The notes below the pieces were generated by a model. It was not told the DNA's origin and did not search any database. It saw only the letters and a program-made list of their open reading frames with translations. Both the position numbers and the translations under genes were made by a program. Shown one piece after another: positions 1 to 21,427 of a DNA stretch of 25,312 bases. The stretch is from a virus (taxonomy: Duplodnaviria > Heunggongvirae > Uroviricota > Caudoviricetes), in the IMG/VR virus record IMGVR_UViG_648276668_000012. One strand, 5' to 3'. Within the stretch, counting starts at the first letter, position 1, and each line of letters starts with the position of its first letter.

Positions 1-1056
1 TTATTGCGGGGTAATGCCAACCGCTGCCGCCACTTTGTCGCCATTTGGTAACGTTGCCAGTGGATTGAAACGGAGCGCCGTTTCCAAATGATCCGGTGCC
101 AGATGCGCATAACGCATAGTCATTTTTATATCGTGGTGTCCGAGAATTTTTTGTAAGGCCAAGATGTTTCCACCCGACATCATGAAGTGCGCCGCAAACG
201 TATGGCGCAGAACGTGTGTCAGTTGACCGCGAGGGAGAACGATAGACGTTTTTTCCATCACGGATAAAAATTGAAAATAGCAGTCTGTGAAGAAATTGAA
301 CCCATCGAGCGCCATGATCTCTTCATAAAGCTCTTTACTGATAGGGATGCTTCTGTTTTTCTTCCCCTTCGTTCTCACAAAGGTGATTCGGTACTTGGTG
401 ACCTGTGAGCGGGTAAGATTGATTGCTTCTCGCCAACGTGCGCCTGTACTTAGACATATTTTTACCACCAGTGCCAGAATTGGGTTCTGACGTTTGCAGT
501 CAGACAGTAATTCGATAATCTGCTCATGTGTAAGCCATGCCATTTCCTTTTCTGCGATAGTGAATTTGCGCATCTTCTCTAATGGGTTTGGAAGTGTCCA
601 TTCACCCAGGCGGGAAAGTTCTCTGAAAACGCTGCTTAGATGGCTTTGCTCCAGGTTAACAGTAACTGGGCTTGCTCCTTTCTTCCATTTTTCACTGAAG
701 TAGATTTCACCAGTAAGGCGTTTATCGCGATAGTGAGCAAACATTTTTGAGGTGAGATCAGTTGCAAGGGGATTTCCCAAGGCGTCAACCATCAACAGCA
801 GCTTGTTGTAGACATGCTGTCCGGCAGTAAGAGATTTGCCATGTAATTTGAACCATAGCTCAACCATATCTTTCAGTGTCCGACGATCCACTGATTCGCC
901 CAGCCAGGGCTTTGCTTCTATTTCCCCCATGGTGTATCGCTCGAAGGCCAGTGCTTCGCCTTTGGTGGCGAATTGTTTACGCACACGGCGTCCGCTACGT
1001 CCGGCGGGGTAACATTCGCAAAGCCATTTCCCTGTGGTTAGTTTTCGTACTGCCAT
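1..1056 (-). CDS. int: Tyrosine site-specific integrase (P2/186 family)
   Basis: 351-aa ORF; C-terminal catalytic region with conserved tyrosine-recombinase residues (HxxR ... MTMRYAHLAP); GGAGGG RBS 8 nt upstream of the ATG; sits at the prophage edge next to the repressor module. Confidence 0.9.
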   Translation of the reverse strand: MAVRKLTTGKWLCECYPAGRSGRRVRKQFATKGEALAFERYTMGEIEAKPWLGESVDRRTLKDMVELWFKLHGKSLTAGQHVYNKLLLMVDALGNPLATDLTSKMFAHYRDKRLTGEIYFSEKWKKGASPVTVNLEQSHLSSVFRELSRLGEWTLPNPLEKMRKFTIAEKEMAWLTHEQIIELLSDCKRQNPILALVVKICLSTGARWREAINLTRSQVTKYRITFVRTKGKKNRSIPISKELYEEIMALDGFNFFTDCYFQFLSVMEKTSIVLPRGQLTHVLRHTFAAHFMMSGGNILALQKILGHHDIKMTMRYAHLAPDHLETALRFNPLATLPNGDKVAAAVGITPQ

Positions 1057-1134
1057 AAAAAATGCCCTCCAATAGAGAGCATTTTTACTGTATGTATAAC
1101 CAGTGTCAATGTATGATGCTTAAGGTTACATACA

Positions 1135-1506
1135 TCATAAGTACCGATATGATTGCGGGGCCGTTATGTTATCACCTAATGAACTTAGATGAAGTGGTTG
1201 GTCATAGATTTTTAGATTACCAATTTCTATAGCAAAGGCCTTTTCTTTGCTATGAAAATATGAGTCAAAAAATTGTTTACTGATACCCGCGTATTGGCTT
1301 GTTTTTTCCCATACAATACTCGGCTTGCCTTCTATAACATCTGCAATGTCAAATTCAGCAACAACTTTACCGACAGGCATTGTTGAATAAATAACCACAG
1401 ATTTTACATCCGGGTTTTTGAAAATACCTTTCCTGAATTCAAACTTCTTTGTTCCATTAAGAATTTTTTCAACAAATTCAGGTTTTATTGACAATAACAC
1501 TTTCAT
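1135..1506 (-). CDS. ASCH-domain (PUA-like fold) protein
   Basis: 123-aa ORF; N-terminal 'LSIKPEFVEKILNGTKKFEFRKG' matches the ASCH-domain signature by recall; AT-rich codon usage unlike the phage backbone. Confidence 0.6.
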   Translation of the reverse strand: MKVLLSIKPEFVEKILNGTKKFEFRKGIFKNPDVKSVVIYSTMPVGKVVAEFDIADVIEGKPSIVWEKTSQYAGISKQFFDSYFHSKEKAFAIEIGNLKIYDQPLHLSSLGDNITAPQSYRYL

Positions 1507-1711
1507 CTACAGCACCAAGTTTAATTATATCGTCAAATTGCTTATCGGTTAATTTAACAACACCCCAACGGTTTTTAGGATTCAAACCAATTTCTTCGAT
1601 TAGTTTAGCACGATTTATTCTTTTAGGTAAAGCTAGATTATATGTAAAACTAATAATGTAAGGGTATCTTTTTGTTTGATAGAATTTTTTTAATTCATTT
1701 TCAGAAAACAC
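1478..1711 (-). CDS. Hypothetical small protein (77 aa), overlaps the ASCH gene by 29 nt
   Basis: ORF with GTG start and no clear Shine-Dalgarno; different frame from the downstream ASCH ORF; could be a separate coupled gene or an artefact. Confidence 0.35.
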   Translation of the reverse strand: MFSENELKKFYQTKRYPYIISFTYNLALPKRINRAKLIEEIGLNPKNRWGVVKLTDKQFDDIIKLGAVDESVIVNKT

Positions 1712-1851
1712 ACTGTATCGTGCACAATACTGTATGAATTCATTTTCACTATGAAAAGAATCAATATATCTAATATCTTCAACTACACATAATGACGTTG
1801 CGACAGAACGATAGTATGCTCTGTTCTCTTCGTCACTTGTTCTGTAAACAA

Positions 1852-2553
1852 CTAATATGTCATGTTTTTTATTTTTGTTACATCATGCATTCTGCATATG
1901 TATATTTTTCTAATGCTGTTAGCATGAGATACATCCGTTATTATATCTGGAGATTCGGTGACGAGTTTTGAATCCGGAAAAAGTTTAGTATGAAATTTAG
2001 GGTATATTGATAATAGATATTTGCTCTCATTATTTTTATTGTTTATATATGGGTAATCAGAAAGAATATCTCCTGTGAGGTGATCTCTATTCATCTCTCT
2101 TACTAAGACATTTTCTATACCATTTGCGGTTTTTTTTGTGCCATGAAGAATGAATCCATAAAGTTTGAATAGTTTTATTAAATATTCATGTTTTTCAAAT
2201 ACAGTAACATAAATATCATTAACTTTTTCTTTTAAAGCATGGTCAAATATTTTTTTAAAAACGTTGTCCTCGTAATGTTTTTTTGTGTTGAACTTAAAAG
2301 TTCCAATTTTCAAATGCTTATCGTTAACGATTGATGGTGTAACATCTGTTATTGTACCGTGCTCAATTTTTAAATACATAAAACCATCAATGGTATTATC
2401 GTCATTATAAAGTACATATGCTTTTTCTTCTGGATTCAGGCTTTTTTTGTTAAACCATTCAATAAAACCGTGTTTATAGTCATTTTTTAATGAATCAAAG
2501 AATATATCATCAAAATTTACTTGACTGAATGGAATAAGCTTTAAATTTTCCAT
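1852..2553 (-). CDS. Hypothetical protein (233 aa), cargo island; possible acyl-transferase-like fold (weak)
   Basis: Uninterrupted 233-aa ORF, AT-rich, co-oriented with flanking genes; C-terminal segment 'EKHEYLIKLFKLYGFILHG' loosely resembles the GNAT motif B region, but no clear motif A. Confidence 0.5.
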   Translation of the reverse strand: MENLKLIPFSQVNFDDIFFDSLKNDYKHGFIEWFNKKSLNPEEKAYVLYNDDNTIDGFMYLKIEHGTITDVTPSIVNDKHLKIGTFKFNTKKHYEDNVFKKIFDHALKEKVNDIYVTVFEKHEYLIKLFKLYGFILHGTKKTANGIENVLVREMNRDHLTGDILSDYPYINNKNNESKYLLSIYPKFHTKLFPDSKLVTESPDIITDVSHANSIRKIYICRMHDVTKIKNMTY

Positions 2554-2580
2554 GTTGCCCCCTGTTTAATTTTTGTGTGA

Positions 2581-3651
2581 TTATCTTCTATAGGTCAAAA
2601 GGTGAATTAATATATATATTGCAATAGCTAGGATTGCTCCACATATATAATATGTGCCTGTCGGTATGAATTTAAGAATAAAAGCAAAGGCGGCACCATA
2701 TATCAAGTATGCGAAAATTTTACTGAATTTTGTTTTCGTGTTTTTAAACTTCACAACAACAGAGAAGTCATTTAGTCTTGCTTTTTTATCATTAACAATC
2801 TTCCAATGGTAAATCATAGGATCGTGATCACCAAATGAAATATCCTTATCGAAATATTTTGTCCATGTTTCAGACTCTAATATTCTACATCCTTTATAAC
2901 TTGAACCAGATGCTGAACATTCATCAACAATATCTCTAATGATAAACAAATGTGTTTTTAAAGGCGTACAAGCGGCGCTCGCCAGAGTTGTAGCGATTTC
3001 TGAAGGTAGGTTTCTTTGTTCATTGATCCTAAAGTCAATAATATCAGAACGCTCAATATTGCTTTTGAGAAAGAGATCTTTGGGATAAAATGTTTTTACT
3101 AAAATACCTATATCATCAATGTTGAGTTTAACGCGAAATCTCAAGTAATGTGGAGCGTCCTCTGAAGATAGGCAATCTTTTAGCTTGAAAACAATAAAAG
3201 TACCATTATGTATTTTAGTTACCTTAACTCTACGGTCAAGTTCACCACCACTAAAAGTTAGCTTTGTATTAACAACTAAATCACCTTTATTCGCGAGTAC
3301 TAATTTTAAATGTCTGACGTCTACAGTTTTGGTATTAATAAGATACTCATTAAAAACAGCCGTTACGAGATCTCGGCTTGACTCGAGATTTTCACTAAGA
3401 TCCGAAAAAAAACAGTTTTCTTTCTCAAATGGTAAAAATATGCATATTGCGCCATGATTTGCAATAGTATCGTCATCGGGTTTTTCAAACGTAATACCAA
3501 AATCTAAATAACCAAATTTATGAGCACTTAGATTCCAAAAGTTTATATGCAACTCATTAATAAAATTCTTGTGTTCAGGGTTATAGGTCGAGCTCGAATC
3601 ACTGCGATAATCCCTGCATCCCCAGACAGCAAAACTTTTTGACATAAACAT
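2581..3651 (-). CDS. Hypothetical protein (356 aa) with C-terminal double transmembrane anchor
   Basis: Long AT-rich ORF; last ~45 residues form two hydrophobic helices (IFAYLIYGAAFAFILKF ... YYICGAILAIAIYILIHLL); no recognisable catalytic motif. Confidence 0.55.
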   Translation of the reverse strand: MFMSKSFAVWGCRDYRSDSSSTYNPEHKNFINELHINFWNLSAHKFGYLDFGITFEKPDDDTIANHGAICIFLPFEKENCFFSDLSENLESSRDLVTAVFNEYLINTKTVDVRHLKLVLANKGDLVVNTKLTFSGGELDRRVKVTKIHNGTFIVFKLKDCLSSEDAPHYLRFRVKLNIDDIGILVKTFYPKDLFLKSNIERSDIIDFRINEQRNLPSEIATTLASAACTPLKTHLFIIRDIVDECSASGSSYKGCRILESETWTKYFDKDISFGDHDPMIYHWKIVNDKKARLNDFSVVVKFKNTKTKFSKIFAYLIYGAAFAFILKFIPTGTYYICGAILAIAIYILIHLLTYRR

Positions 3652-3673
3652 TTCCTTATATCATAGTAAGTTA

Positions 3674-4240
3674 TTATACATCTGATAATATTTTTCGATA
3701 GCATCTTGCGATGGGTTTAATATCGTCAAGCATACAATCAAAAGATGTTTGTCCACTGCTAACTTGCACTCTCCCAACTGGAATTCTAACCAGATCACGA
3801 GAACTTATTTTTCCTTCTATTTCAACAATCCATTTCCCATCAATAATTTCATCAAATTTCATGTCTACTAGATAATTATCTGATAACTCAGAAAATATTG
3901 CGGGGGTAATCATATCCTCCGGGAGCAAATCTTTATCAAAAATGTAAGAGGAATCACCTTGTAGCTTGCCATCTACTATTTTGTAATGTGGCAATTTTAT
4001 ACCTTCTTTCGTTGCCTCAAGACGAGGGGAACCAACACCAGACACTAACCACTCGAGAGACACTCCCGTTTCTAGAGCGCACTGGATTACCCAATCTGCT
4101 GGAAAAATATCACGCATATAGCGCGTTGCCATGGTGCTCTTAGAAACACCTAAATGATCACAGAGAGCCTGACGGGTACCGAACCCATATGCTTCAACTA
4201 AACGTTCTATGGCTTTCTTACCGCCGCTATTGAAATCCAT
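3674..4240 (-). CDS. cI: CI-type immunity repressor (186 CI-like)
   Basis: Protein 'MDFNSGGKKAIERLVEAYGF...CALETGVSLEWLVSGVG' resembles the 186 CI N-terminal DNA-binding domain; chosen start has GGAG RBS 6 nt upstream (the track's longer ORF to 4327 lacks this); position between int and apl/cII. Confidence 0.75.
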   Translation of the reverse strand: MDFNSGGKKAIERLVEAYGFGTRQALCDHLGVSKSTMATRYMRDIFPADWVIQCALETGVSLEWLVSGVGSPRLEATKEGIKLPHYKIVDGKLQGDSSYIFDKDLLPEDMITPAIFSELSDNYLVDMKFDEIIDGKWIVEIEGKISSRDLVRIPVGRVQVSSGQTSFDCMLDDIKPIARCYRKILSDV

Positions 4241-4267
4241 AAGTTCTCCAAAGAAATCCAAAATTCG

Positions 4268-4296
4268 TTGACAGATTCCAAAAGCGATCTTAAAGT
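4268..4296 (+). promoter_or_regulatory. Candidate rightward early promoter (pR-like): TTGACA-N17-TAAAGT
   Basis: Perfect -35 hexamer TTGACA at 4268-4273, 17-nt spacer, -10-like TAAAGT at 4291-4296, about 90 bp upstream of the apl start. Confidence 0.4.
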
Positions 4297-4385
4297 TGAA
4301 CCAGAAGTGTTCTTTTGGAGCCTTCACTACTAATCACGACAAACAACGGCTCGCCACAAGCCATATCTAGAAGGAATGTTGCCTT

Positions 4386-4589
4386 ATGACACCTAACATT
4401 TCAATTACTCTGAATACACCACATGTCACAATCGAACGTTATAGCGAACTGACTGGCCTTTCTATTGATACGATTAACGACATGTTGGCTGATGGCCGAC
4501 TACCTCGTCATCGTCTTCGTAAAGACAAAAAACGTGAAAAGGTAATGATTAACCTGGCTGCTCTGACTGTTGATGCTTTGTCTGCTTAA
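4386..4589 (+). CDS. apl: Apl/Cox-like excisionase and transcriptional regulator
   Basis: 67-aa protein with helix-turn-helix-like segment ([22 protein letters not shown]); first gene of the rightward operon, divergent from cI, as in 186/P2. Confidence 0.6.
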
Positions 4590-4644
4590 TAGACGTCTAT
4601 TTTCGCAATAAGACGCTGAGTTCGATTTTGCGATAAGTTCGGAG

Positions 4645-5163
4645 TTGAAAACCATGTTTGATTACCAAGTTTCCAAACATCCACATTTTGATGAAGCCTG
4701 TCGTGCATTCGCACTGCGCCACAACCTGGTGCAACTGGCAGAATGTGCAGGCATGAATGTACAGATTCTGCGGAACAAGCTGAACCCAGCTCAACCTCAT
4801 TTATTAACCGCACCAGAAATCTGGCTGCTTACCGATCTGACTGAAGATTCAACGCTGGTAGATGGTTTTCTGGCTCAGATTCACTGCCTGCCATGCGTAC
4901 CGATTAATGAGGTGGCAAAAGAGAAACTGCCGCATTACGTCATGAGTGCAACTGCTGAAATTGGGCGTGTCGCGGCAGGTGCGGTTTCTGGCGATGTAAA
5001 AACCAGTGCCGGTCGTCGTGATGCTATCAGCAGCATTAACTCTGTAACACGACTGATGGCGCTGGCCGCTGTTTCATTGCAGGCCCGTTTACAGGCTAAT
5101 CCTGCGATGGCGAGTGCAGTTGATACCGTGACTGGCCTCGGTGCTTCATTCGGTTTGCTGTGA
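4645..5163 (+). CDS. cII: CII-like lysogeny establishment regulator (186 CII family)
   Basis: N-terminus '[20 protein letters not shown]' and C-terminus '...[21 protein letters not shown]' closely match the remembered 186 CII sequence; true start may be the ATG at 4654. Confidence 0.8.
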
Positions 5164-5977: not shown

Positions 5978-6204
5978 TGGCTGATGCAATGGATCTCGTA
6001 CAGCAGCGCGTTGAAGAAGAACGCCAGCGCCATATCCGTGCTGCCCGTGCCAAAACGCCGGGCGTGTCCCGCGTGCTTTGCATTGAGTGTGAAGCGCCAA
6101 TTCCGCCAGCACGCCGCCGCGCTATTCCAGGTGTGCAGCTTTGCATTACCTGCCAGGAGATCGCAGAGCTGAAAGGCAAACATTACAACGGAGGTGCTGT
6201 ATGA
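5977..6204 (+). CDS. TraR/DksA-family C4 zinc-finger protein
   Basis: CxxC...CxxC motif (CIECEAPIPP...LCITCQ); 75 aa; typical of P2 orf82-like early proteins. Confidence 0.7.
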   Translation: MADAMDLVQQRVEEERQRHIRAARAKTPGVSRVLCIECEAPIPPARRRAIPGVQLCITCQEIAELKGKHYNGGAV

Positions 6205-7058
6205 GCACCATCCTGAAATGGGCGGGTAATAAAACCGTCATTATGCCAGAACTGAAAAAATACCTTCCTGCTGGCCCGCGACTGGTTGAACCTTTCGCGG
6301 GTTCTTGTGCTGTGATGATGGAGACGGATTACCCCAGCTATCTGGTTGCGGATATTAATCCTGATTTAATCAACCTCTATAAAAAGGTTGCCGCTGATTG
6401 TGAATCGTTTATATCTCGCGCCAGAGTTTTATTTGAGAACGCAAACAGGGAGATGGCTTATTACAACATAAGGCAGGAGTTTAATTACTCAACTGAAATT
6501 ACTGATTTCATGAAAGCGGTATATTTCCTGTATCTCAATCGTCACGGTTACCGTGGTTTATGTCGCTATAACAAGAGCGGGCATTTCAACATTCCCTATG
6601 GTAATTATAAAAATCCGTATTTCCCTGAAAAAGAAATTCGCGCATTTGCAGAAAAGGCCCAGCGAGCCACGTTTATCTGCGCCAGCTTTGATGAAACGCT
6701 GGCGATGTTGAAGGCGGGGGATGTGGTGTATTGCGATCCGCCTTATGACGGTGCGTTTTCCGGCTATCACACTGACGGCTTCACTGAAGATGACCAGTAT
6801 CACCTGGCATCCGTTCTTGAACATCGGTCATCAGAAGGACATCCGGTCATTGTTTCTAACAGTGACACATCCCTGATCCGTTCGCTGTATCGCAATTTTA
6901 CTCACCACTACATCAAGGCAAAACGCAGCATTGGCGTGGCAGCTGGTGAGAGTAAATCTGCAACAGAAATCATCGCTGTTTCCGGGCCGCGCTGCTGGGT
7001 AGGATTTGATCCTTCGCGTGGCGTGGATTGTTCCGTCGTGTACGGAGTGCGTGCATGA
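6201..7058 (+). CDS. dam: DNA adenine methyltransferase (Dam family, N6-adenine)
   Basis: N-terminal 'ILKWAGNK' AdoMet-binding motif and catalytic 'DPPY' motif ([10 protein letters not shown]); GGAGG RBS; ATGA overlap with the upstream gene. Confidence 0.85.
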
Positions 7059-9469
7059 GCCATGCTGATATGAACAACTGCAGCGGCTTTAACGAGGTCG
7101 CCGCAGCATTCTCATGGAACAGCCCGAAAAAGGCCATTAACCCTTATCTGGACCCGGCGGAAGTTGCGCCGGTTTCTGCGCTTTCAAACCTGATCACTCT
7201 GTACGCTGCCGATAACGAGCAGGAACAACTGCGCCGCGAGGCACTGAGTGATCAGGTCTGGGAGCGTTATTTCTTTAATGAATCCCATGATCCTGTCCAG
7301 CGCGAAATGAAGCAGGATAAGCTCATTAGCCGGGCAAAGCTGGCGCATGAGCAGCAGCGTTTTAATCCGGATATGGTCATTCTGGCGGACGTCAACGCCC
7401 AGCCTTCCCATATCAGCAAGCCGCTGATGCAACGTATTGAATACTTTAGCAGCCTGGGCAGGCCAAAGGCTTATTCCCGCTATTTACGTGAGACGATTAA
7501 GCCATGTCTGGAACGACTGGAGCATGTACGCGACAGCCAGCTATCTGCATCTTTTCGCTTTATGGCAAGCCATGAAGGGCTGGACGGCCTGCTGATCCTG
7601 CCTGAAATGAGTCAGGATCAGGTGAAGCGCCTGTCTACCCTTGTCGCCGCGCATATGAGCATGTGCCTTGATGCAGCTTGTGGTGATTTGTATGCCACCG
7701 ATGACGTTAAGCCAGAAGAAATCCGCAAGACATGGGAAAAGGTGGCAGCGGAAACCCTGCGTCTGGATGTCATCCCGCCTGCGTTTGAGCAACTCCGCCG
7801 GAAAAGAAACCGCCGTAAACCCGTGCCCTATGAACTCATTCCGGGTTCGCTGGCGCGTATGTTGTGCGCCGACTGGTGGTACCGGAAATTATGGAAGATG
7901 CGTTGCGAATGGCGGGAAGAGCAGTTGCGTGCTGTTTGCCTGGTCAGCAAAAAAGCATCTCCCTATGTCAGCTATGAAGCCGTGATGCATAAACGTGAGC
8001 AGCGCCGTAAGTCGCTGGAGTTTTTCCGTTCTCATGAACTGGTGAACGAAGACGGCGACACGCTGAACATGGAGGATGTGGTAAACGCCAGCAGCAGCAA
8101 CCCGGCGCATCGCCGCAACGAGATGATGGCCTGTGTTAAAGGCCTGGAGCTTATCGCGGAAATGCGTGGTGACTGCGCCGTTTTCTACACCATCACCTGT
8201 CCGTCACGTTTCCATTCCACGCTAAATAACGGCAGGCCCAACCCGACCTGGACAAATGCGACGGTAAGACAAAGCAGCGATTATCTGGTCGGTATGTTTG
8301 CTGCATTTCGTAAGGCGATGCACAAAGCCGGGTTGCGCTGGTATGGCGTGCGGGTGGCTGAGCCGCATCACGACGGCACAGTTCACTGGCACCTGTTGTG
8401 TTTCATGCGCAAAAAAGACCGCCGCGCCATTACTGCATTGTTGCGTAAGTTTGCCATCCGTGAAGACCGCGAGGAGCTGGGCAATAACACGGGGCCACGC
8501 TTTAAGTCTGAGCTGATAAACCCGCGCAAAGGTACGCCAACAAGCTACATCGCGAAATATATCAGCAAGAACATTGACGGGCGTGGTCTGGCTGGCGAGA
8601 TCAGCAAGGAAACGGGTAAATCTCTGCGTGATAACGCTGAATACGTGAATGCCTGGGCGTCTTTGCATCGTGTTCAGCAATTCCGCTTCTTTGGTATTCC
8701 GGGACGTCAGGCTTACCGTGAACTTCGCTTGCTGGCTGGTCAGGCGGCAAGGCAACAGGGTGACAAAAAAGCAGGTGCGCCGGTACTGGATAACCCGTGT
8801 CTTGATGCCATTCTGGCTGCTGCTGATGCTGGTTGTTTTGCCACCTACATCATGAAGCAGGGCGGCGTACTGGTTCCCCGTAAATATCACCTCATCAGAA
8901 CCGCTTATGAAATCAACGAAGAGCCGACCGCCTATGGCGATCACGGTATTCGTATTTATGGCATCTGGTCACCCATTGCAGAGGGCAAGATCTGCACTCA
9001 TTCAGTGAAGTGGAAAATGGTTCGTAAAGCCGTTGACGTTCAGGAGGCGGCAGCCGACCAGGGCGCTTGCGCCCCTTGGACTCGTGGCAATAACTGTCCC
9101 CTTGCTGAAAATTTGAACCAACAGGAGAAAGATAAATCAGCTGATGGGGACACCAGAACGGACATTACCCGCATGGATGACAAGGAGTTGCACGATTACC
9201 TGCACAGTATGAGCAAAAAAGAGCGCCGGGAACTGGCTGCAAGGTTACGCTTGGTGAAACCGAAACGGCGTAAAGACTACAAACAGCGAATTACAGATCA
9301 TCAGCGACAGCAGCTCGTTTATGAGCTGAAGTCCAGAGGATTTGATGGCAGCGAGAAAGAGGTCGATTTACTCCTTCGCGGCGGCAGTATTCCGTCAGGA
9401 GCAGGCCTGCGTATCTTCTATCGGAACCAGCGTCTGCAGGAGGATGATAAATGGCGGAACCTGTATTAA
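7055..9469 (+). CDS. A: Replication initiation protein A (rolling-circle nicking endonuclease, P2 gpA family)
   Basis: About 805 aa; contains the HxH-type motif 'VHWHLLCF' and a tyrosine-rich active-site region 'YIAKYISKN'; start ATG overlaps the dam stop (ATGA). Confidence 0.85.
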
Positions 9470-9562
9470 TTACGCTGGTTAACAATTCGTGCTCTTAATA
9501 ATACCAGGCATATCAGGCTGATGAGCGTAAAAAACGTTTTACATCAGTAAGATTATTATATA

Positions 9563-9578
9563 CTGTAAATATAAACAG
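9563..9578. promoter_or_regulatory. LexA (SOS) box CTGTAAATATAAACAG
   Basis: Exact CTGT-N8-ACAG with AT-rich spacer, 44 bp upstream of the ATG at 9622, overlapping an AT-rich -10-like region (TATACT). Confidence 0.6.
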
Positions 9579-9621
9579 TGGTTATGTGTACAGTATTGCT
9601 TGTGGTGTCATAGGAGGAAAA

Positions 9622-9810
9622 ATGCAGGACTATTTTTTGGAGTCTTTGAAGCTCCAGCGCATTGATTTTTTTCTTAAGCTTGTAGCGGCTAGTGAGTGTA
9701 GTGATGAAGAGAAGGGGCTGGCTCTGCAGTGGGTTTCTGAGTTGACTGATGAACTCATGGCAAAAATCAGAACTCACGAATACAACCGCTCAATGGATGT
9801 CATCAGTTGA
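9622..9810 (+). CDS. Hypothetical protein (62 aa), first gene of an SOS-controlled pair
   Basis: AGGAGG RBS immediately upstream of the ATG; preceded by the LexA box. Confidence 0.5.
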   Translation: MQDYFLESLKLQRIDFFLKLVAASECSDEEKGLALQWVSELTDELMAKIRTHEYNRSMDVIS

Positions 9811-9820
9811 GGTGACTTTT

Positions 9821-10054
9821 ATGCGCATTGAAATAATGATCGATAAAGAGCAGAAGATTAGCCAGTCTACCCTGGACGCCCTTGAATCAGAGCTTTACCG
9901 CAATCTGCGCCCCCTATATCCAAAAACGGTAATTCGCATCCGCAAAGGTAGCTCTAACGGTGTGGAACTGACCGGACTGCAACTGGACGAAGAAAGAAAA
10001 CAAGTGATGAAAATTATGCAGAAGGTGTGGGAAGACGACAGCTGGCTGCATTAA
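9821..10054 (+). CDS. tum: DinI-family protein (Tum-like antirepressor module)
   Basis: 'MRIEIMIDKEQKISQSTLDALESEL...VWEDDSWL' aligns by eye with E. coli DinI (MRIEVTIAK...ETWESADDWF); GAGGTG RBS; LexA box upstream of the pair. Confidence 0.75.
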   Translation: MRIEIMIDKEQKISQSTLDALESELYRNLRPLYPKTVIRIRKGSSNGVELTGLQLDEERKQVMKIMQKVWEDDSWLH

Positions 10055-10213
10055 GAAAAGTTGCTGGCGTCTGAACTTGGTTCTGGCGTCAGCAAGGTTG
10101 AACAACGAGTACAGTGAGGCGTTAGGTGTGGCGTTTATTTGATGAGTGAGCGCCCGTTCTGCGACAGGTTCGGAGATTAAGGTTGAAACTACGGGCAAAA
10201 TACCATCTTTTTC

Positions 10214-10639
10214 CTACTTAATTGAGTCCAGTAACAAGTTACAGTTACTCTCATTGTAGAGAGAACGAGCAATTAGTGTTACCTGCTTTCCATTCATTCC
10301 CGGCTTATCCCATAACACAGCTTCTTGCGACGCCACAAATTCAGCATAATCAATTATGCGTTGTTCGTGATCTGGTTCCTCATAGCCAAAGTATGAGAGC
10401 GCATCGTTGTAAGCGTGGTAAGCTGCTTTCTGTAATATCTTGATATCGGCTGTAGGTACTTGCTCCGTGTAGCTAGGATCTAATTGTGTGCTACTGCCAT
10501 AGAATGCACATGAAAGGTAAGATATTGATTTCTGTTGAGCTTTAGTTCCTTTCTCATAGTTTTTAGCTGTTACCGCCTGAACTGGGACGCTAACAAAGCT
10601 TGCAACCAGAATTAAAATTAATACGTAAAAGCTTTTCAT
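10214..10639 (-). CDS. Hypothetical secreted/periplasmic protein (141 aa) with N-terminal signal peptide
   Basis: N-terminus 'MKSFYVLILILVASFVSVPVQAVTA' is a typical Sec signal peptide; AT-rich; opposite orientation to flanking genes; at the P2 tin/old-equivalent position. Confidence 0.55.
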   Translation of the reverse strand: MKSFYVLILILVASFVSVPVQAVTAKNYEKGTKAQQKSISYLSCAFYGSSTQLDPSYTEQVPTADIKILQKAAYHAYNDALSYFGYEEPDHEQRIIDYAEFVASQEAVLWDKPGMNGKQVTLIARSLYNESNCNLLLDSIK

Positions 10640-10912
10640 TTTGACCTCAGCCGAAACGTTAGAGAGACTATCGAAATTTGTAAAACCCGTGGCGATTCAG
10701 TTTGAGATCCTCCCCCTTACATGATTTTTAATCAAATATATGCTTTTGTAAGCATACCTGTTAACCGAATTATTTATTTTTAGAGATCTTCCGACATACT
10801 GATTATGCCCGCTGAGGAGTTCACCTTGCGTAAAGTCCGATTCGCTTTACTCGTCTGTGCATGCCTATGCTGCATGAGATTGCATGATCGTTTGAGGATC
10901 GTTTTTGCTAAG

Positions 10913-10936
10913 GCCCGCCAGAACTGGCGGGCTTTT
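10913..10936 (+). terminator. Rho-independent terminator (GC hairpin plus T-tract)
   Basis: GCCCGCCAG-AA-CTGGCGGGC perfect 9-bp stem followed by TTTT. Confidence 0.5.
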
Positions 10937-10981
10937 GCGTAGATCATGCACCTGCATGAAAACCACTATATAAAGCGGGCA

Positions 10982-11000
10982 GGCGTGGCGGGGATACGAG
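10982..11000. other. Candidate cos (cohesive-end) site
   Basis: GGCGTGGCGGGGATACGAG matches the first 13 nt of the remembered 186/P2 cos 19-mers (GGCGTGGCGGGGAAAGCAT / GGCGAGGCGGGGAAAGCAC); GGGGATACG repeats 22 bp downstream; lies on the portal-gene side as in P2. Confidence 0.5.
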
Positions 11001-11087
11001 CGCGCGCTGATGGGGATACGGTGTTTTTAGTAAGGTTATGAGGTAGAATTTGACGCGGTTTTTTTAAGCATATTGAGGTGTAAATAG

Positions 11088-11633
11088 ATGGATGCTATTA
11101 CTGGATTATTGGATTTTTTTAGAAAGATTCCAACGGCACTTCTTGTAGCTATTACATGTGGTTTAAGTTTGATCCTTTTTTTGCCAGAATCTTTAGCTTC
11201 TAAAGTTGCGGTTGATGGTTTCCGTAAAGAATATAGAAATTTCATAGGACCAGCATTTTTACTGGCTGTCTCTTTTTTAGTTGCAAGAGTATATCAGTTT
11301 TTTCATGACCTATATGGCGATAGACAAAGGCACAAAGTACGTATCTCTTATTTGGAGAAGCTAACTCCTGAGGAGAAGGGATACCTCTGGTCTTATATAA
11401 TTGATGGCGAAAACTCACTAATGTGTGGTCCTGAAGATGGTGTTATGGGGGGGTTGGTTGCTAAGCGCATAACCTATAGAGCTGCAAACGTGGGCAGTAT
11501 GATTGACGGATTCGCTTTCAATTTGCAGCCGTGGGCTCGCGAGCATTTACAGAACAACACTCATTTATTAGAAGGAGCGGTCGGTAGGGCAATGACACCG
11601 GGTGAGAAACTAGGATTCAGGCGTAGATTTTAA
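11088..11633 (+). CDS. Hypothetical inner-membrane protein (181 aa, two N-terminal TM helices); possibly SieB-like superinfection exclusion
   Basis: Two hydrophobic helices (IPTALLVAITCGLSLILFL; IGPAFLLAVSFLVARVYQFF) followed by a soluble domain; lies between cos and portal gene Q, where P2 has no gene; lower GC than backbone. Confidence 0.5.
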   Translation: MDAITGLLDFFRKIPTALLVAITCGLSLILFLPESLASKVAVDGFRKEYRNFIGPAFLLAVSFLVARVYQFFHDLYGDRQRHKVRISYLEKLTPEEKGYLWSYIIDGENSLMCGPEDGVMGGLVAKRITYRAANVGSMIDGFAFNLQPWAREHLQNNTHLLEGAVGRAMTPGEKLGFRRRF

Positions 11634-11677
11634 CCAGTCGCACACAGGCGATGCTTGACTGGTTAGACAGGGATAAT

Positions 11678-12715
11678 CTATTCAGCGTTCAACTGGTAGG
11701 GGTCAAAAGATATTATTGGCTCATTTAACCATTCGTTAAGTTCTTCAAGTCGCTTTTGTAAAGGAATTAACTCATTTCGCACAAAAACGCGGCTGGCCTT
11801 TTCCACATCCCCAAAACCTCCAACATTATTTGGCATAATCCCCATCATTTGCGGCGGCACGCGGTGCGCCGCCATCATGTCATCCCGGCTCACGTTCTTG
11901 ATGTTTAGAAACTCATCCTTTGCTGCGACCTCTGACAACGGGATGATCTGAAGCCCATCCTTTTTGCCGTTAGGCGAGTACATAAACAGGTTGCGGAAGT
12001 TGCCCGGACCTTTGGCGCTTTTCATCGCGTTGCGGAGGTTGTTTACGTCCTCCTGGTTCTGCGCAGCATCGGTCATGTACATGATGAAGCCTGCATGACT
12101 GCCGTTAATGTAATACTTGCGGCGGAACAGCGTGGCGGACTCGTTGAGCAGGGCTGACGGAATGGCAGAAAGATAACCGGGCAGGCCGTAGATCTCCTGG
12201 TTAATGTCCGGTTCCATCAGATGAAAAATGCTTCCTTTCGTGAACTGATACGGCTGGGTTGTCATACCGTATTGCACAAACCAGTAGGTATCCAGGTCTA
12301 ACCCGCGTCGGGTGTATTTTGCTAGTGCAGGCTCAAGGGCGATAACTTCACCGAAGCGGTTCGTGCGTTTCTCCAGGTAGGCGTTACCAAATACCAGATA
12401 GTCCTGCACAAAACGCGAAAAAGCTTGCTGGCTGAGCAGAGGATGAGGGATATAGGTACTGGTCAGAATGTTGCACTTTACTGCAATCGGGGAACTGTGA
12501 TGCACGGCAGCGCGGAAGGTGCGCGCCAGTCCGTCAAAGCTGACGGGCGGCTCATACCAACGGTCCATCTGTACGCATTCCACATAGTCCAGTAATTCTC
12601 GGCGGTCCAGAACAGGAACGGGATCGCCGAAGCTGAATGCTTCGGCTGAAGTCTGGCTTTTATTCTGGTTCTGGTTCGTCGACGCAGTGCGGTTTTTCTT
12701 ACTCTTTCCCATCAA
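11678..12715 (-). CDS. Q: Portal protein (P2 gpQ family)
   Basis: 345 aa, size and position match P2 Q; 4-nt overlap with upstream terminase ATPase gene; leftward P-Q operon divergent from O-N-M-L. Confidence 0.85.
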   Translation of the reverse strand: MMGKSKKNRTASTNQNQNKSQTSAEAFSFGDPVPVLDRRELLDYVECVQMDRWYEPPVSFDGLARTFRAAVHHSSPIAVKCNILTSTYIPHPLLSQQAFSRFVQDYLVFGNAYLEKRTNRFGEVIALEPALAKYTRRGLDLDTYWFVQYGMTTQPYQFTKGSIFHLMEPDINQEIYGLPGYLSAIPSALLNESATLFRRKYYINGSHAGFIMYMTDAAQNQEDVNNLRNAMKSAKGPGNFRNLFMYSPNGKKDGLQIIPLSEVAAKDEFLNIKNVSRDDMMAAHRVPPQMMGIMPNNVGGFGDVEKASRVFVRNELIPLQKRLEELNEWLNEPIISFDPYQLNAE

Positions 12716-20482: not shown

Positions 20483-21427
20483 TTAAATTTCGGATTTGGT
20501 TTCAAGGTTTCTCAATGTATTCGGTATCAATGTTTCACTGAATCCAGAAAGCGCACAAATCACATAAATGGAGAATGAGATGTCACTACTATTATTCATA
20601 AACCCGAAGATAATATTCCCCTTGAGCATAAAGTATACAAGTACGCCAGCCATCATTGAAAGGAGTATTCTCTCCGCACCATAGAAGAAATAAGTTTTCT
20701 TTTTTAGTTCTCTGTCTGTATGGAGGCTTTTTATTTTTAGGGATACAGAAATAAACCCCCCGATGGAAGCAAAGGAAGCGGCGTATAACACCACTGGAAT
20801 AAAGTGATTAGCTTTTATGAAATTAGAATCTCTAGCCAAATATGTTATCAATGCAAGGATGATGAATATCAATGCTAAAGTTATGGCTCCTGATTGATAT
20901 AAATTCCTTCCAAGCATTGTGTTTTCATAATCGTTTTTAATGTCTCTATTTATTGCGGCGAAGTTATTTTTGTTTATATCATTTTTTCCAAGTATTGTTG
21001 CTGACATAACTGTTGCTGCTCTTTTTTTATAAATAGAAGAGCAGTTGTATTTGTAGCAATGTGAAATAAACTCATCAAAGTGCTCTTTTGAAGCATGATA
21101 TCTATCAATCTTACTGTCATCCTCCTCAATGATTGAGTCTATGAAAACGAGCATAGACTCATGAGGCGGAAGATTGGCTACTTCATAAATGACATATTCA
21201 TCCCCACGTGAATAAATTTTACTTATGGTGTTTCCACCCAAATCTGTTCCACCAACGACGTATTTGCCAATTCTTTCTTGCTGTTTTTTTTTGTATTCAT
21301 CCCTCTCCTTCTTTGTAGGTGGGGGATTGATGGGATCATTCATTGCATCCATGGGGACAATATTATCTTGCTCAGCTGCTTCTGGGGTATTGGTGTTAGT
21401 TGTCATTTTTTGTGTAGTTAATGTCAC
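20483..21427 (-). CDS. Hypothetical cargo protein (314 aa): N-terminal soluble domain plus four C-terminal TM helices
   Basis: AT-rich ORF on the strand opposite to the tail operon, between S and V; hydrophobic helices at roughly residues 170-300; own terminator. Confidence 0.6.
   Translation of the reverse strand: MTLTTQKMTTNTNTPEAAEQDNIVPMDAMNDPINPPPTKKERDEYKKKQQERIGKYVVGGTDLGGNTISKIYSRGDEYVIYEVANLPPHESMLVFIDSIIEEDDSKIDRYHASKEHFDEFISHCYKYNCSSIYKKRAATVMSATILGKNDINKNNFAAINRDIKNDYENTMLGRNLYQSGAITLALIFIILALITYLARDSNFIKANHFIPVVLYAASFASIGGFISVSLKIKSLHTDRELKKKTYFFYGAERILLSMMAGVLVYFMLKGNIIFGFMNNSSDISFSIYVICALSGFSETLIPNTLRNLETKSEI

Follow-up and report, generated by a model that had tools for sequence, protein, structure and literature searches.

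The window analysed here is the whole of a 25,312-nt stretch of Caudoviricetes DNA (IMG/VR virus record IMGVR_UViG_648276668_000012), and our subject is a pair of genes at its positions 1135–2553: an acetyltransferase gene (gene A, matching PADLOC profile PDC-M11A), which appears in the window as two separate open reading frames (ORFs) of 233 and 77 aa, and an ASCH-domain gene of 123 aa downstream of it (gene B, PDC-M11B). These ORFs, together with one for a 356-aa protein next to them, all lie on the minus strand, in an island of 27–34% GC that is flanked by the cI repressor and integrase genes of a 186/P2-like prophage. The prophage is integrated beside rcdA, and the pair sits in its lysogenic cI-to-int segment. 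Our comparisons, made at the level of sequence, show that the 77-aa ORF is the C-terminal remainder of a 359-codon acetyltransferase gene and not a gene in its own right. We consider it likely that 1135–2553 as a whole is a two-gene PDC-M11 cassette, consisting of a split GNAT-PUA gene A and an intact ASCH gene B.

The 5′ portion of gene A is the 233-aa ORF (1852–2553), which covers the GNAT domain and the first third of a PUA-like domain, matches positions 11–231 of the 357-position PDC-M11A profile (E = 6.3e-79) and terminates at a premature TAG arising from a frameshift. The 3′ portion (1478–1882; residues ~232–359) overlaps the end of this ORF and is read in the −1 frame relative to it. 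The listed 77-aa ORF (1478–1711, with a TGA stop at 1480–1478) is this frame from its first in-frame GTG onward; upstream, the frame stays open to 1882, with no start codon before 1711. Translation from 1882 is stop-free and matches residues 229–359 of an intact relative, and the 77-aa translation by itself matches only positions 284–357 of PDC-M11A (E = 3.9e-22).

The unbroken form of the gene is found in close relatives. The same island is present in seven complete Escherichia coli genomes (six of them 99.3–99.4% identical to the window, one 93.6%), with a match length of 2645 nt versus 2641 nt in the window. In each of the four whose gene annotation we compared, a single intact 1080-nt gene (359 aa) spans both ORFs, labelled ‘N-acetyltransferase’ (WP_096838308.1) in three and ‘hypothetical protein’ in strain C2, and it shows the identical 29-nt overlap onto the ASCH gene. 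Nearly all of the best 120 among 1688 database homologues of the A protein are single proteins of 350–362 aa, homologues of the 77-aa sequence occur solely as the C-terminus of such proteins, and PHROG family 6345 spans the entire 359 aa. One 242-aa ‘partial’ homologue (P0054) was considered as a recurrence of the same truncation and set aside: a contig end cuts this protein, and the site of the break is read in frame. In terms of the PDC-M11 definition, the window holds PDC-M11A and PDC-M11B matches in adjacent same-strand genes, with the former spread over two ORFs; the two genes are not both intact, gene A being frameshifted at 1865–1870 and scrambled at 2250–2284.

The preliminary description of this locus had read the 77-aa ORF as a small gene coupled to ASCH or, alternatively, had taken the two as one gene broken by a frameshift. 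Its observations stand: the ORF overlaps the ASCH gene by 29 nt in a different frame, and no purine-rich Shine-Dalgarno sequence precedes its GTG start. While an overlap of 29 nt is what coupled genes typically show, an independent 77-aa gene is contradicted by this GTG without a ribosome-binding site, by a match to just the last 74 positions of the 357-position profile, and by the extent of its product: the PUA-like domain of A covers residues ~166–357 and the 77-aa piece (residues 283–359) is the last two-fifths of it, so it contains too little of the domain to fold alone. The ASCH gene is indeed coupled to an overlapping frame, but not to an independent gene of 77 codons; similarly, a frameshift exists, but it joins the 233-aa frame to the 77-aa frame and not the 77-aa frame to the 123-aa frame. 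Nor did alignment bear out the idea that homologues might be single proteins in which the 77-aa and 123-aa sequences are fused. We scanned one genome per species and obtained 80 loci with an acetyltransferase homologue, spanning Enterobacterales, Vibrionales, Pasteurellales, Pseudomonadales, Burkholderiales, Bacteroidota, Firmicutes, Verrucomicrobiota and Campylobacterota. At all 80, ASCH is a distinct gene (about 117–135 aa), and at four it lies on the opposite strand, which excludes one broken 77-aa/123-aa gene. Whether taken as a coupled small gene or as a piece of a broken ASCH gene, an independent identity for the 77-aa ORF has a negligible probability in our assessment.

The same survey documents a close linkage between genes A and B. 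An ASCH homologue stands beside the acetyltransferase gene at 80/80 loci, and at 76 of them, in several phyla, the ASCH start lies within the acetyltransferase 3′ end, at a depth of 23–92 nt (23 nt at 34 loci, 29 nt at 17, 38 nt at 9, and longer at the rest); at the other four, ASCH is close by. Overlap length leaves a remainder of 2 on division by three without exception among the overlapping loci, which makes the frame offset identical throughout. In the window, the overlap occupies 1478–1506 on the minus strand (29 nt, out of frame) and comprises the acetyltransferase end and the ASCH start. Conservation of the overlap sequence, ATGAAAGTnTTATTnTCnATTAA, extends across bacterial phyla (window and L007–L086), and the sequence encodes both the acetyltransferase C-terminus (..ESxIxN) and the ASCH N-terminus (MKVLLSIKPE), with the position of the upstream stop codon as the sole variable, giving lengths from 23 to 92 nt. 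Homologues ~45–60% identical occur in Proteobacteria, Bacteroidota, Firmicutes, Verrucomicrobiota and Campylobacterota. A GG(T/A)G- or GGAG-like element is found ~6–8 nt 5′ of the ASCH start at most of the 76 overlapping loci; its counterpart in the window, read from the sequence, is a Shine-Dalgarno-like GGTG (1513–1516, minus strand), 6 nt 5′ of the ASCH ATG and within Leu-Gly codons of the acetyltransferase gene. The out-of-frame overlap is a conserved trait of the family and not a product of chance, and its conservation implies that A and B are translated as a coupled pair.

Gene B (1135–1506, minus strand) encodes 123 aa from an ATG start and is apparently intact. Its earlier assignment to the ASCH domain was confirmed: the protein matches Pfam ASCH (PF04266) over residues 5–95 with 28.5 bits (E = 2.6e-6), above the gathering cut-off of 21.2 bits, and is a full-length match to PDC-M11B (E = 3.9e-49) and a match to phrog_3136 (E = 7.5e-53). 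It is identical to the E. coli A30 copy (WP_000866322.1), which is the annotated ASCH product in three of the four annotated E. coli relatives. The nearest solved relative is ZmASCH (5GUS; E = 4.8e-10, residues 3–119), and homology to this structure, with 117 of 123 residues aligned, predicts a PUA-like β-barrel fold for B. The octapeptide characteristic of these proteins reads G18-T-K20-K-F-E23-F-R25 in B, which is the Glu type (GxKxxExR, or GKER). Across 80 homologues, over which we scored residue conservation for both A and B, its Gly, Lys, Glu and Arg positions are 95–100% conserved, with Lys, Glu and Arg at 100%; the protein also has a conserved C-terminal PQS..Y motif. A comparison with YqfB, the E. 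coli N4-acetylcytidine (ac4C) amidohydrolase, had been proposed for this protein. It is valid at the level of the superfamily, but given the Glu-type octapeptide and the closer similarity to ZmASCH, it does not extend further.

Gene A, in contrast to gene B, bears two lesions. Aligned to four of its relatives (L001, L002, L004 and L005), the window has four bases fewer, and all four differences are one-base contractions of homopolymers. The first, at 1865–1870 (minus strand), shortens a coding-strand run from A7 to A6, such that ATAAAAAAACAT becomes ATAAAAAACAT; loss of this single A shifts the frame and yields the 233-aa and 77-aa ORFs. The remaining three fall at 2250–2284 (minus strand; coding-strand A8 to A7, T6 to T5 and A8 to A7), for a net change of −3 that turns TLRGQRFL into HYEDNVF. 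According to a structural model (described below), this seven-codon patch would be the β4-α3 loop of the GNAT domain, the region that binds the acetyl-CoA pyrophosphate, and it eliminates T93, G96 and R98, each at least 95% conserved in the 80 homologues. Only three substitutions separate gene A from its close relatives. With both a frameshift and a scrambled acetyl-CoA loop, gene A as assembled is predicted to be non-functional, inactivated twice, while gene B is intact.

What caused the break is a separate matter, and homopolymer under-calling in an old draft assembly, with the strain itself carrying an intact PDC-M11 cassette, is in our view the probable answer. The truncated 233-aa product is recorded in one assembly only, the source of the window (GCA_000176615.2, scaffold GL884207.1), which, going by its accession series, we take to be a draft of about 2010 and presumably a product of pyrosequencing. 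All four length differences are −1 contractions of A or T runs of 6–8 nt, three of them inside 35 nt, in a gene that otherwise differs from its relatives by just three substitutions. At slippage rates typical of E. coli, four independent real slippage events are improbable at such divergence.

Evidence from the rest of the window weighs against sequencing error. All runs of 7 nt or more in the window that could be compared were checked against other complete genomes, and all seven outside gene A (A8 at 3404; T7 at 9665, 11114, 11176 and 21022; G7 at 11447; T9 at 21284) were of equal length, which argues against a generally error-prone assembly. Within gene A, three of six such runs are contracted, so that errors would need to be confined to this gene (3/6 versus 0/7; Fisher test, ~0.07, worked by hand). 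The only other contractions in the window are both intergenic and are seen relative to most relatives, at 9529 (A7 to A6) and 17193 (C5 to C4); they are shared exactly with two and seven other complete E. coli genomes, respectively, and are therefore natural polymorphisms and not errors. A general homopolymer error over the whole window is thus unsupported. The 1149 bp of flanking chromosome in the same assembly contain no indels, but too few long runs to be informative.

The clustering of contractions in gene A, alongside accurate long runs elsewhere, is what would be expected if the break were real and a presumably toxic or costly acetyltransferase had been inactivated by slippage in A-runs and were now decaying, with ASCH surviving as an orphan. 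Two independent lesions in A and an unchanged B likewise form the pattern expected if a toxin is lost first. Such decay is a serious possibility, though one we hold to be somewhat improbable: the allele is known from a single assembly, four indels against three substitutions represent a large excess, every indel is a −1 contraction, and a net loss of three bases inside 35 nt resembles correlated read errors. On balance, homopolymer sequencing error is the more likely cause of the break and real decay the less likely one.

A functional split, produced by programmed −1 frameshifting or transcriptional slippage at the break or by phase variation of the A-runs, appears very improbable. The site has features that invite the idea, since the 0-frame sequence A AAA AAC at 1870–1864 is a canonical X XXY YYZ slippery heptamer, the downstream frame is the −1 frame, and five or six of the A-runs in gene A are 7 nt or longer. 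Nevertheless, all relatives examined continue in one frame, the A-run is confined to the close E. coli lineage (all other homologues have mixed sequence there), and the acetyl-CoA loop would stay scrambled even with the frame restored. Programmed frameshifting or slippage was rejected on these grounds, as conservation was seen for neither the site nor the split. Runs of six to seven A are also short for efficient phase variation. The many A-runs of the E. coli allele might make a toxic gene A a hotspot of reversible inactivation, a less likely addition to the immune-module reading given below.

Though the window copy is broken, the architecture of intact gene A can be predicted. An AlphaFold2 (AF2) model, built from a 39-sequence alignment headed by a homologue 84% identical to A, has two domains (pLDDT 87.8, pTM 0.86) and suggests an N-terminal GNAT acetyltransferase domain followed by a C-terminal PUA-like β-barrel of the EVE/ASCH type. 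The profile of A also matches the GNAT protein PaiA (E = 1e-4). Assignment of the C-terminal domain to the EVE/ASCH-type subclass is a prediction from the modelled fold only, and it is here that some results tell against us: the Pfam EVE model did not match A, and in hhalign the A C-domain and B shared a weak 21-residue N-terminal match with a probability of 17%, such that profile comparison gave no sequence-level support for paralogy between the two. Each half of the protein also has a PHROG family of its own, phrog_13728 (144 positions) for the GNAT half alone and phrog_30943 (193 positions) for the PUA-like half alone, so the gene also occurs in nature divided in two where its domains meet, near residue 165. 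This natural split is unlike the break in the window, which lies at residue 231.

The pairing of these domains allows a tentative mechanism for the intact cassette. PUA-like folds elsewhere bind nucleic acid or modified bases, and the PUA-like domain of A may select a target (tRNA, another RNA, or possibly DNA with a particular base) that the GNAT domain would then acetylate. Gene B, as an amidohydrolase-type ASCH protein with an intact Lys/Glu dyad, might remove or limit this acetylation. A and B would then make up a toxin-antidote module of the writer-eraser kind, its genes expressed from the lysogenic operon, and phage infection could tip it toward toxicity or toward modification of the invader. 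We regard this scheme as possible but far from established, and slightly more doubtful still is its extension to an acetylation-based writer-eraser immune module that targets a nucleic-acid base or aminoacyl-tRNA and, in one subtype that includes the window, uses the 356-aa protein, a putative membrane-anchored β-sandwich, as sensor or effector. A defence or conflict context had been offered for the locus as conjecture; it agrees with the PADLOC designation PDC-M11 and with published comparative genomics. The Dam methylase reported for the same prophage is present (6141–7058) and of the D12 class.

Other roles have been put forward for operons of this kind, and these count against the scheme just outlined. 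Bell, Wolf and Koonin (2020; BMC Biol 18:159, PMC7641849) described ‘(PIN-)GNAT-EVE’ operons computationally, acknowledging that Iyer et al. (2013) had described them earlier, and proposed that ASCH binds modified DNA or regulates expression and that prophage GNAT-EVE may help the phage against host restriction. Following this view, a prophage GNAT-EVE protein would serve the phage, for instance by acetylating modified host or phage nucleic acid, or aminoacyl-tRNA, and so countering host restriction; the part of ASCH would be to read modified DNA or to regulate expression, not to erase a mark. We consider this unlikely. HTH-ASCH and HsdS-ASCH fusions in related operons and the occurrence of GNAT-EVE without PIN mainly in prophages (PMC7641849) fit such roles, as does the position of the window cassette in a prophage lysogenic operon. 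On the other hand, complete conservation of the octapeptide Lys, Glu and Arg in B is a better fit to an enzyme than to a passive reader, the family is also common outside prophages, adjoining toxin-antitoxin and defence genes, and 19/19 ASCH proteins, including ZmASCH, deacetylated ac4C-tRNA according to the abstract of a 2026 preprint (bioRxiv 10.64898/2026.02.27.708502). A further point against the writer-eraser scheme is that our literature search found no experimental work on any PDC-M11/GNAT-EVE member.

Adjacent genes vary among the cassettes. In the window, the neighbour is the 356-aa protein (2581–3651, minus strand), which has a β-rich body and two C-terminal transmembrane helices and had no match in Pfam, PADLOC, PHROG or NCBIfam. 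When neighbours were clustered over 81 loci, its family was adjacent at eight (the window and loci in Scandinavium, Brenneria, Raoultella, Vibrio, Methylophilus, Aggregatibacter and Paraburkholderia); it has only 106 database members. The family stands in an operon with ASCH and GNAT genes at 8/8 genome loci and in 4/4 database contexts. In all four of these further contexts, the family member lies between an ASCH gene and a GNAT gene, and three of them have the order GNAT-PUA, ASCH, 356-aa-family protein, small GNAT. Across our loci, the family was seen at L007–L009, L027, L046, L050, L080 and L087–L092. The 356-aa protein is probably an optional, undescribed third component of one subtype of the cassette. 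An AAA_17 kinase-like protein of ~175 aa (PF13207, 1.3e-17) is adjacent at 17/81 loci, the window not among them, and the genes beside the cassette in further genomes include HipA, PIN, resolvase and a PAAR/VRR-NUC/TsiV cluster.

E. coli also carries a second allele of the cassette, ~77% identical in DNA, as in E. coli WP5-W18-ESBL-11 (L003, 3076–6180). At least 23 more complete genomes carry it, likewise between int and cI, and there its partners are not the 356-aa protein but another hypothetical protein, of 260 aa, and a CI repressor of greater length (299 aa). For the island in the window, megablast against a phage collection gave zero matches, and a promoter and terminator scan of 1000–4700 found sites no more frequent than in shuffled sequence. 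Elsewhere in the window, a variable cargo hotspot of P2-like phages is located at 9470–11677, between a replication gene (7028–9469) and the portal gene (11678–12715). It includes a SieB-like superinfection-exclusion gene (11088–11633; PF14163, 2e-22), a DinI-like gene (9749–10054) and a 141-aa ORF on the minus strand without an assigned function (10214–10639). In close relatives, the same hotspot holds a SEFIR-domain protein, or an RNA-binding-domain protein together with a DUF4145 protein.

The practical outcome of these analyses is a correction to annotation: two ORFs should be replaced by one gene flagged as frameshifted, and the 77-aa ORF is no candidate small protein. The finding itself is ordinary: a mis-split gene that belongs to a candidate system already known from computational work. 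The cassette is widespread and has been a computationally predicted conflict system since at least 2020, with its function a matter of prediction only. That members of the 356-aa family were seen exclusively beside ASCH and GNAT genes provides a small new lead, and experiments are made easier to design by conservation of the overlap, by an ASCH motif that is intact and by the reported deacetylation of ac4C-tRNA by ASCH proteins.

Judged by its sequence, the cassette is the GNAT-EVE plus ASCH operon already described by Bell et al. (2020) and the PADLOC candidate PDC-M11. In their account, EVE is fused to the GNAT C-terminus, an ASCH gene is present in nearly all operons and an AAA_17 ATPase often, and the PIN-less form is found commonly in beta- and gammaproteobacterial prophages; the authors predicted toxin-antitoxin or virus-host conflict roles for the modules, all of which were then uncharacterised (PMC7641849). 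In our search of the literature, the term ‘GNAT-EVE’ occurred only in Bell et al. and its preprint, and ‘PDC-M11’ in two papers, one of them a genome survey that simply lists it. Our data match the published pattern in the fusion of GNAT to a C-terminal PUA-like domain, in an ASCH gene in the same operon (80/80 loci), in the frequent adjacency of AAA_17 and in a prophage location in gammaproteobacteria; both PADLOC profiles also match at full length. They depart from it in that the GNAT gene of the window is split, with a scrambled acetyl-CoA loop, and in that the window subtype adds the 356-aa membrane protein, which is absent both from the passages of Bell et al. consulted and from the PADLOC profiles.

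Among characterised proteins, ZmASCH of Zymomonas mobilis (5GUS/5GUQ) shares the Glu-type octapeptide with the window ASCH protein, though at 147 aa versus 123 aa and with only moderate similarity. ZmASCH has a weak, metal-dependent ribonuclease activity on single-stranded RNA (PMC5615036) and is one of the 19 ASCH proteins, all of those tested in the 2026 preprint, that are reported to remove ac4C from tRNA; where Glu-type (GKER) proteins were mutated in that work (TthASCH, EOLA1 and TRIP4), the octapeptide Lys and Glu were both essential (10.64898/2026.02.27.708502). YqfB belongs to the same superfamily, has the octapeptide Lys and offers a precedent for amidohydrolase activity, but it is of the Thr type (GKTR) and 103 aa long, unlike the 123-aa window protein, which has Glu (E23) at position 6 of the motif.

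At the level of the two-gene cassette, the closest parallels are the type II GNAT toxin-antitoxin systems TacT/TacA and AtaT/AtaR, which likewise place a GNAT enzyme in a mobile pair of genes and, by analogy, make acetylation of a translation-related nucleic-acid substrate a plausible toxic activity for A. They differ in that their partner is an upstream RHH/DUF1778 antitoxin, a domain that searches with Pfam and PADLOC profiles did not find in any of the island proteins, whereas here the partner is a downstream ASCH protein and the GNAT enzyme carries a PUA-like domain. DarT/DarG, a toxin-antitoxin defence system of the writer-eraser kind that uses ADP-ribosylation and different folds, resembles the cassette in its proposed logic only, in which one enzyme would modify nucleic acid and a co-expressed one would reverse the modification.

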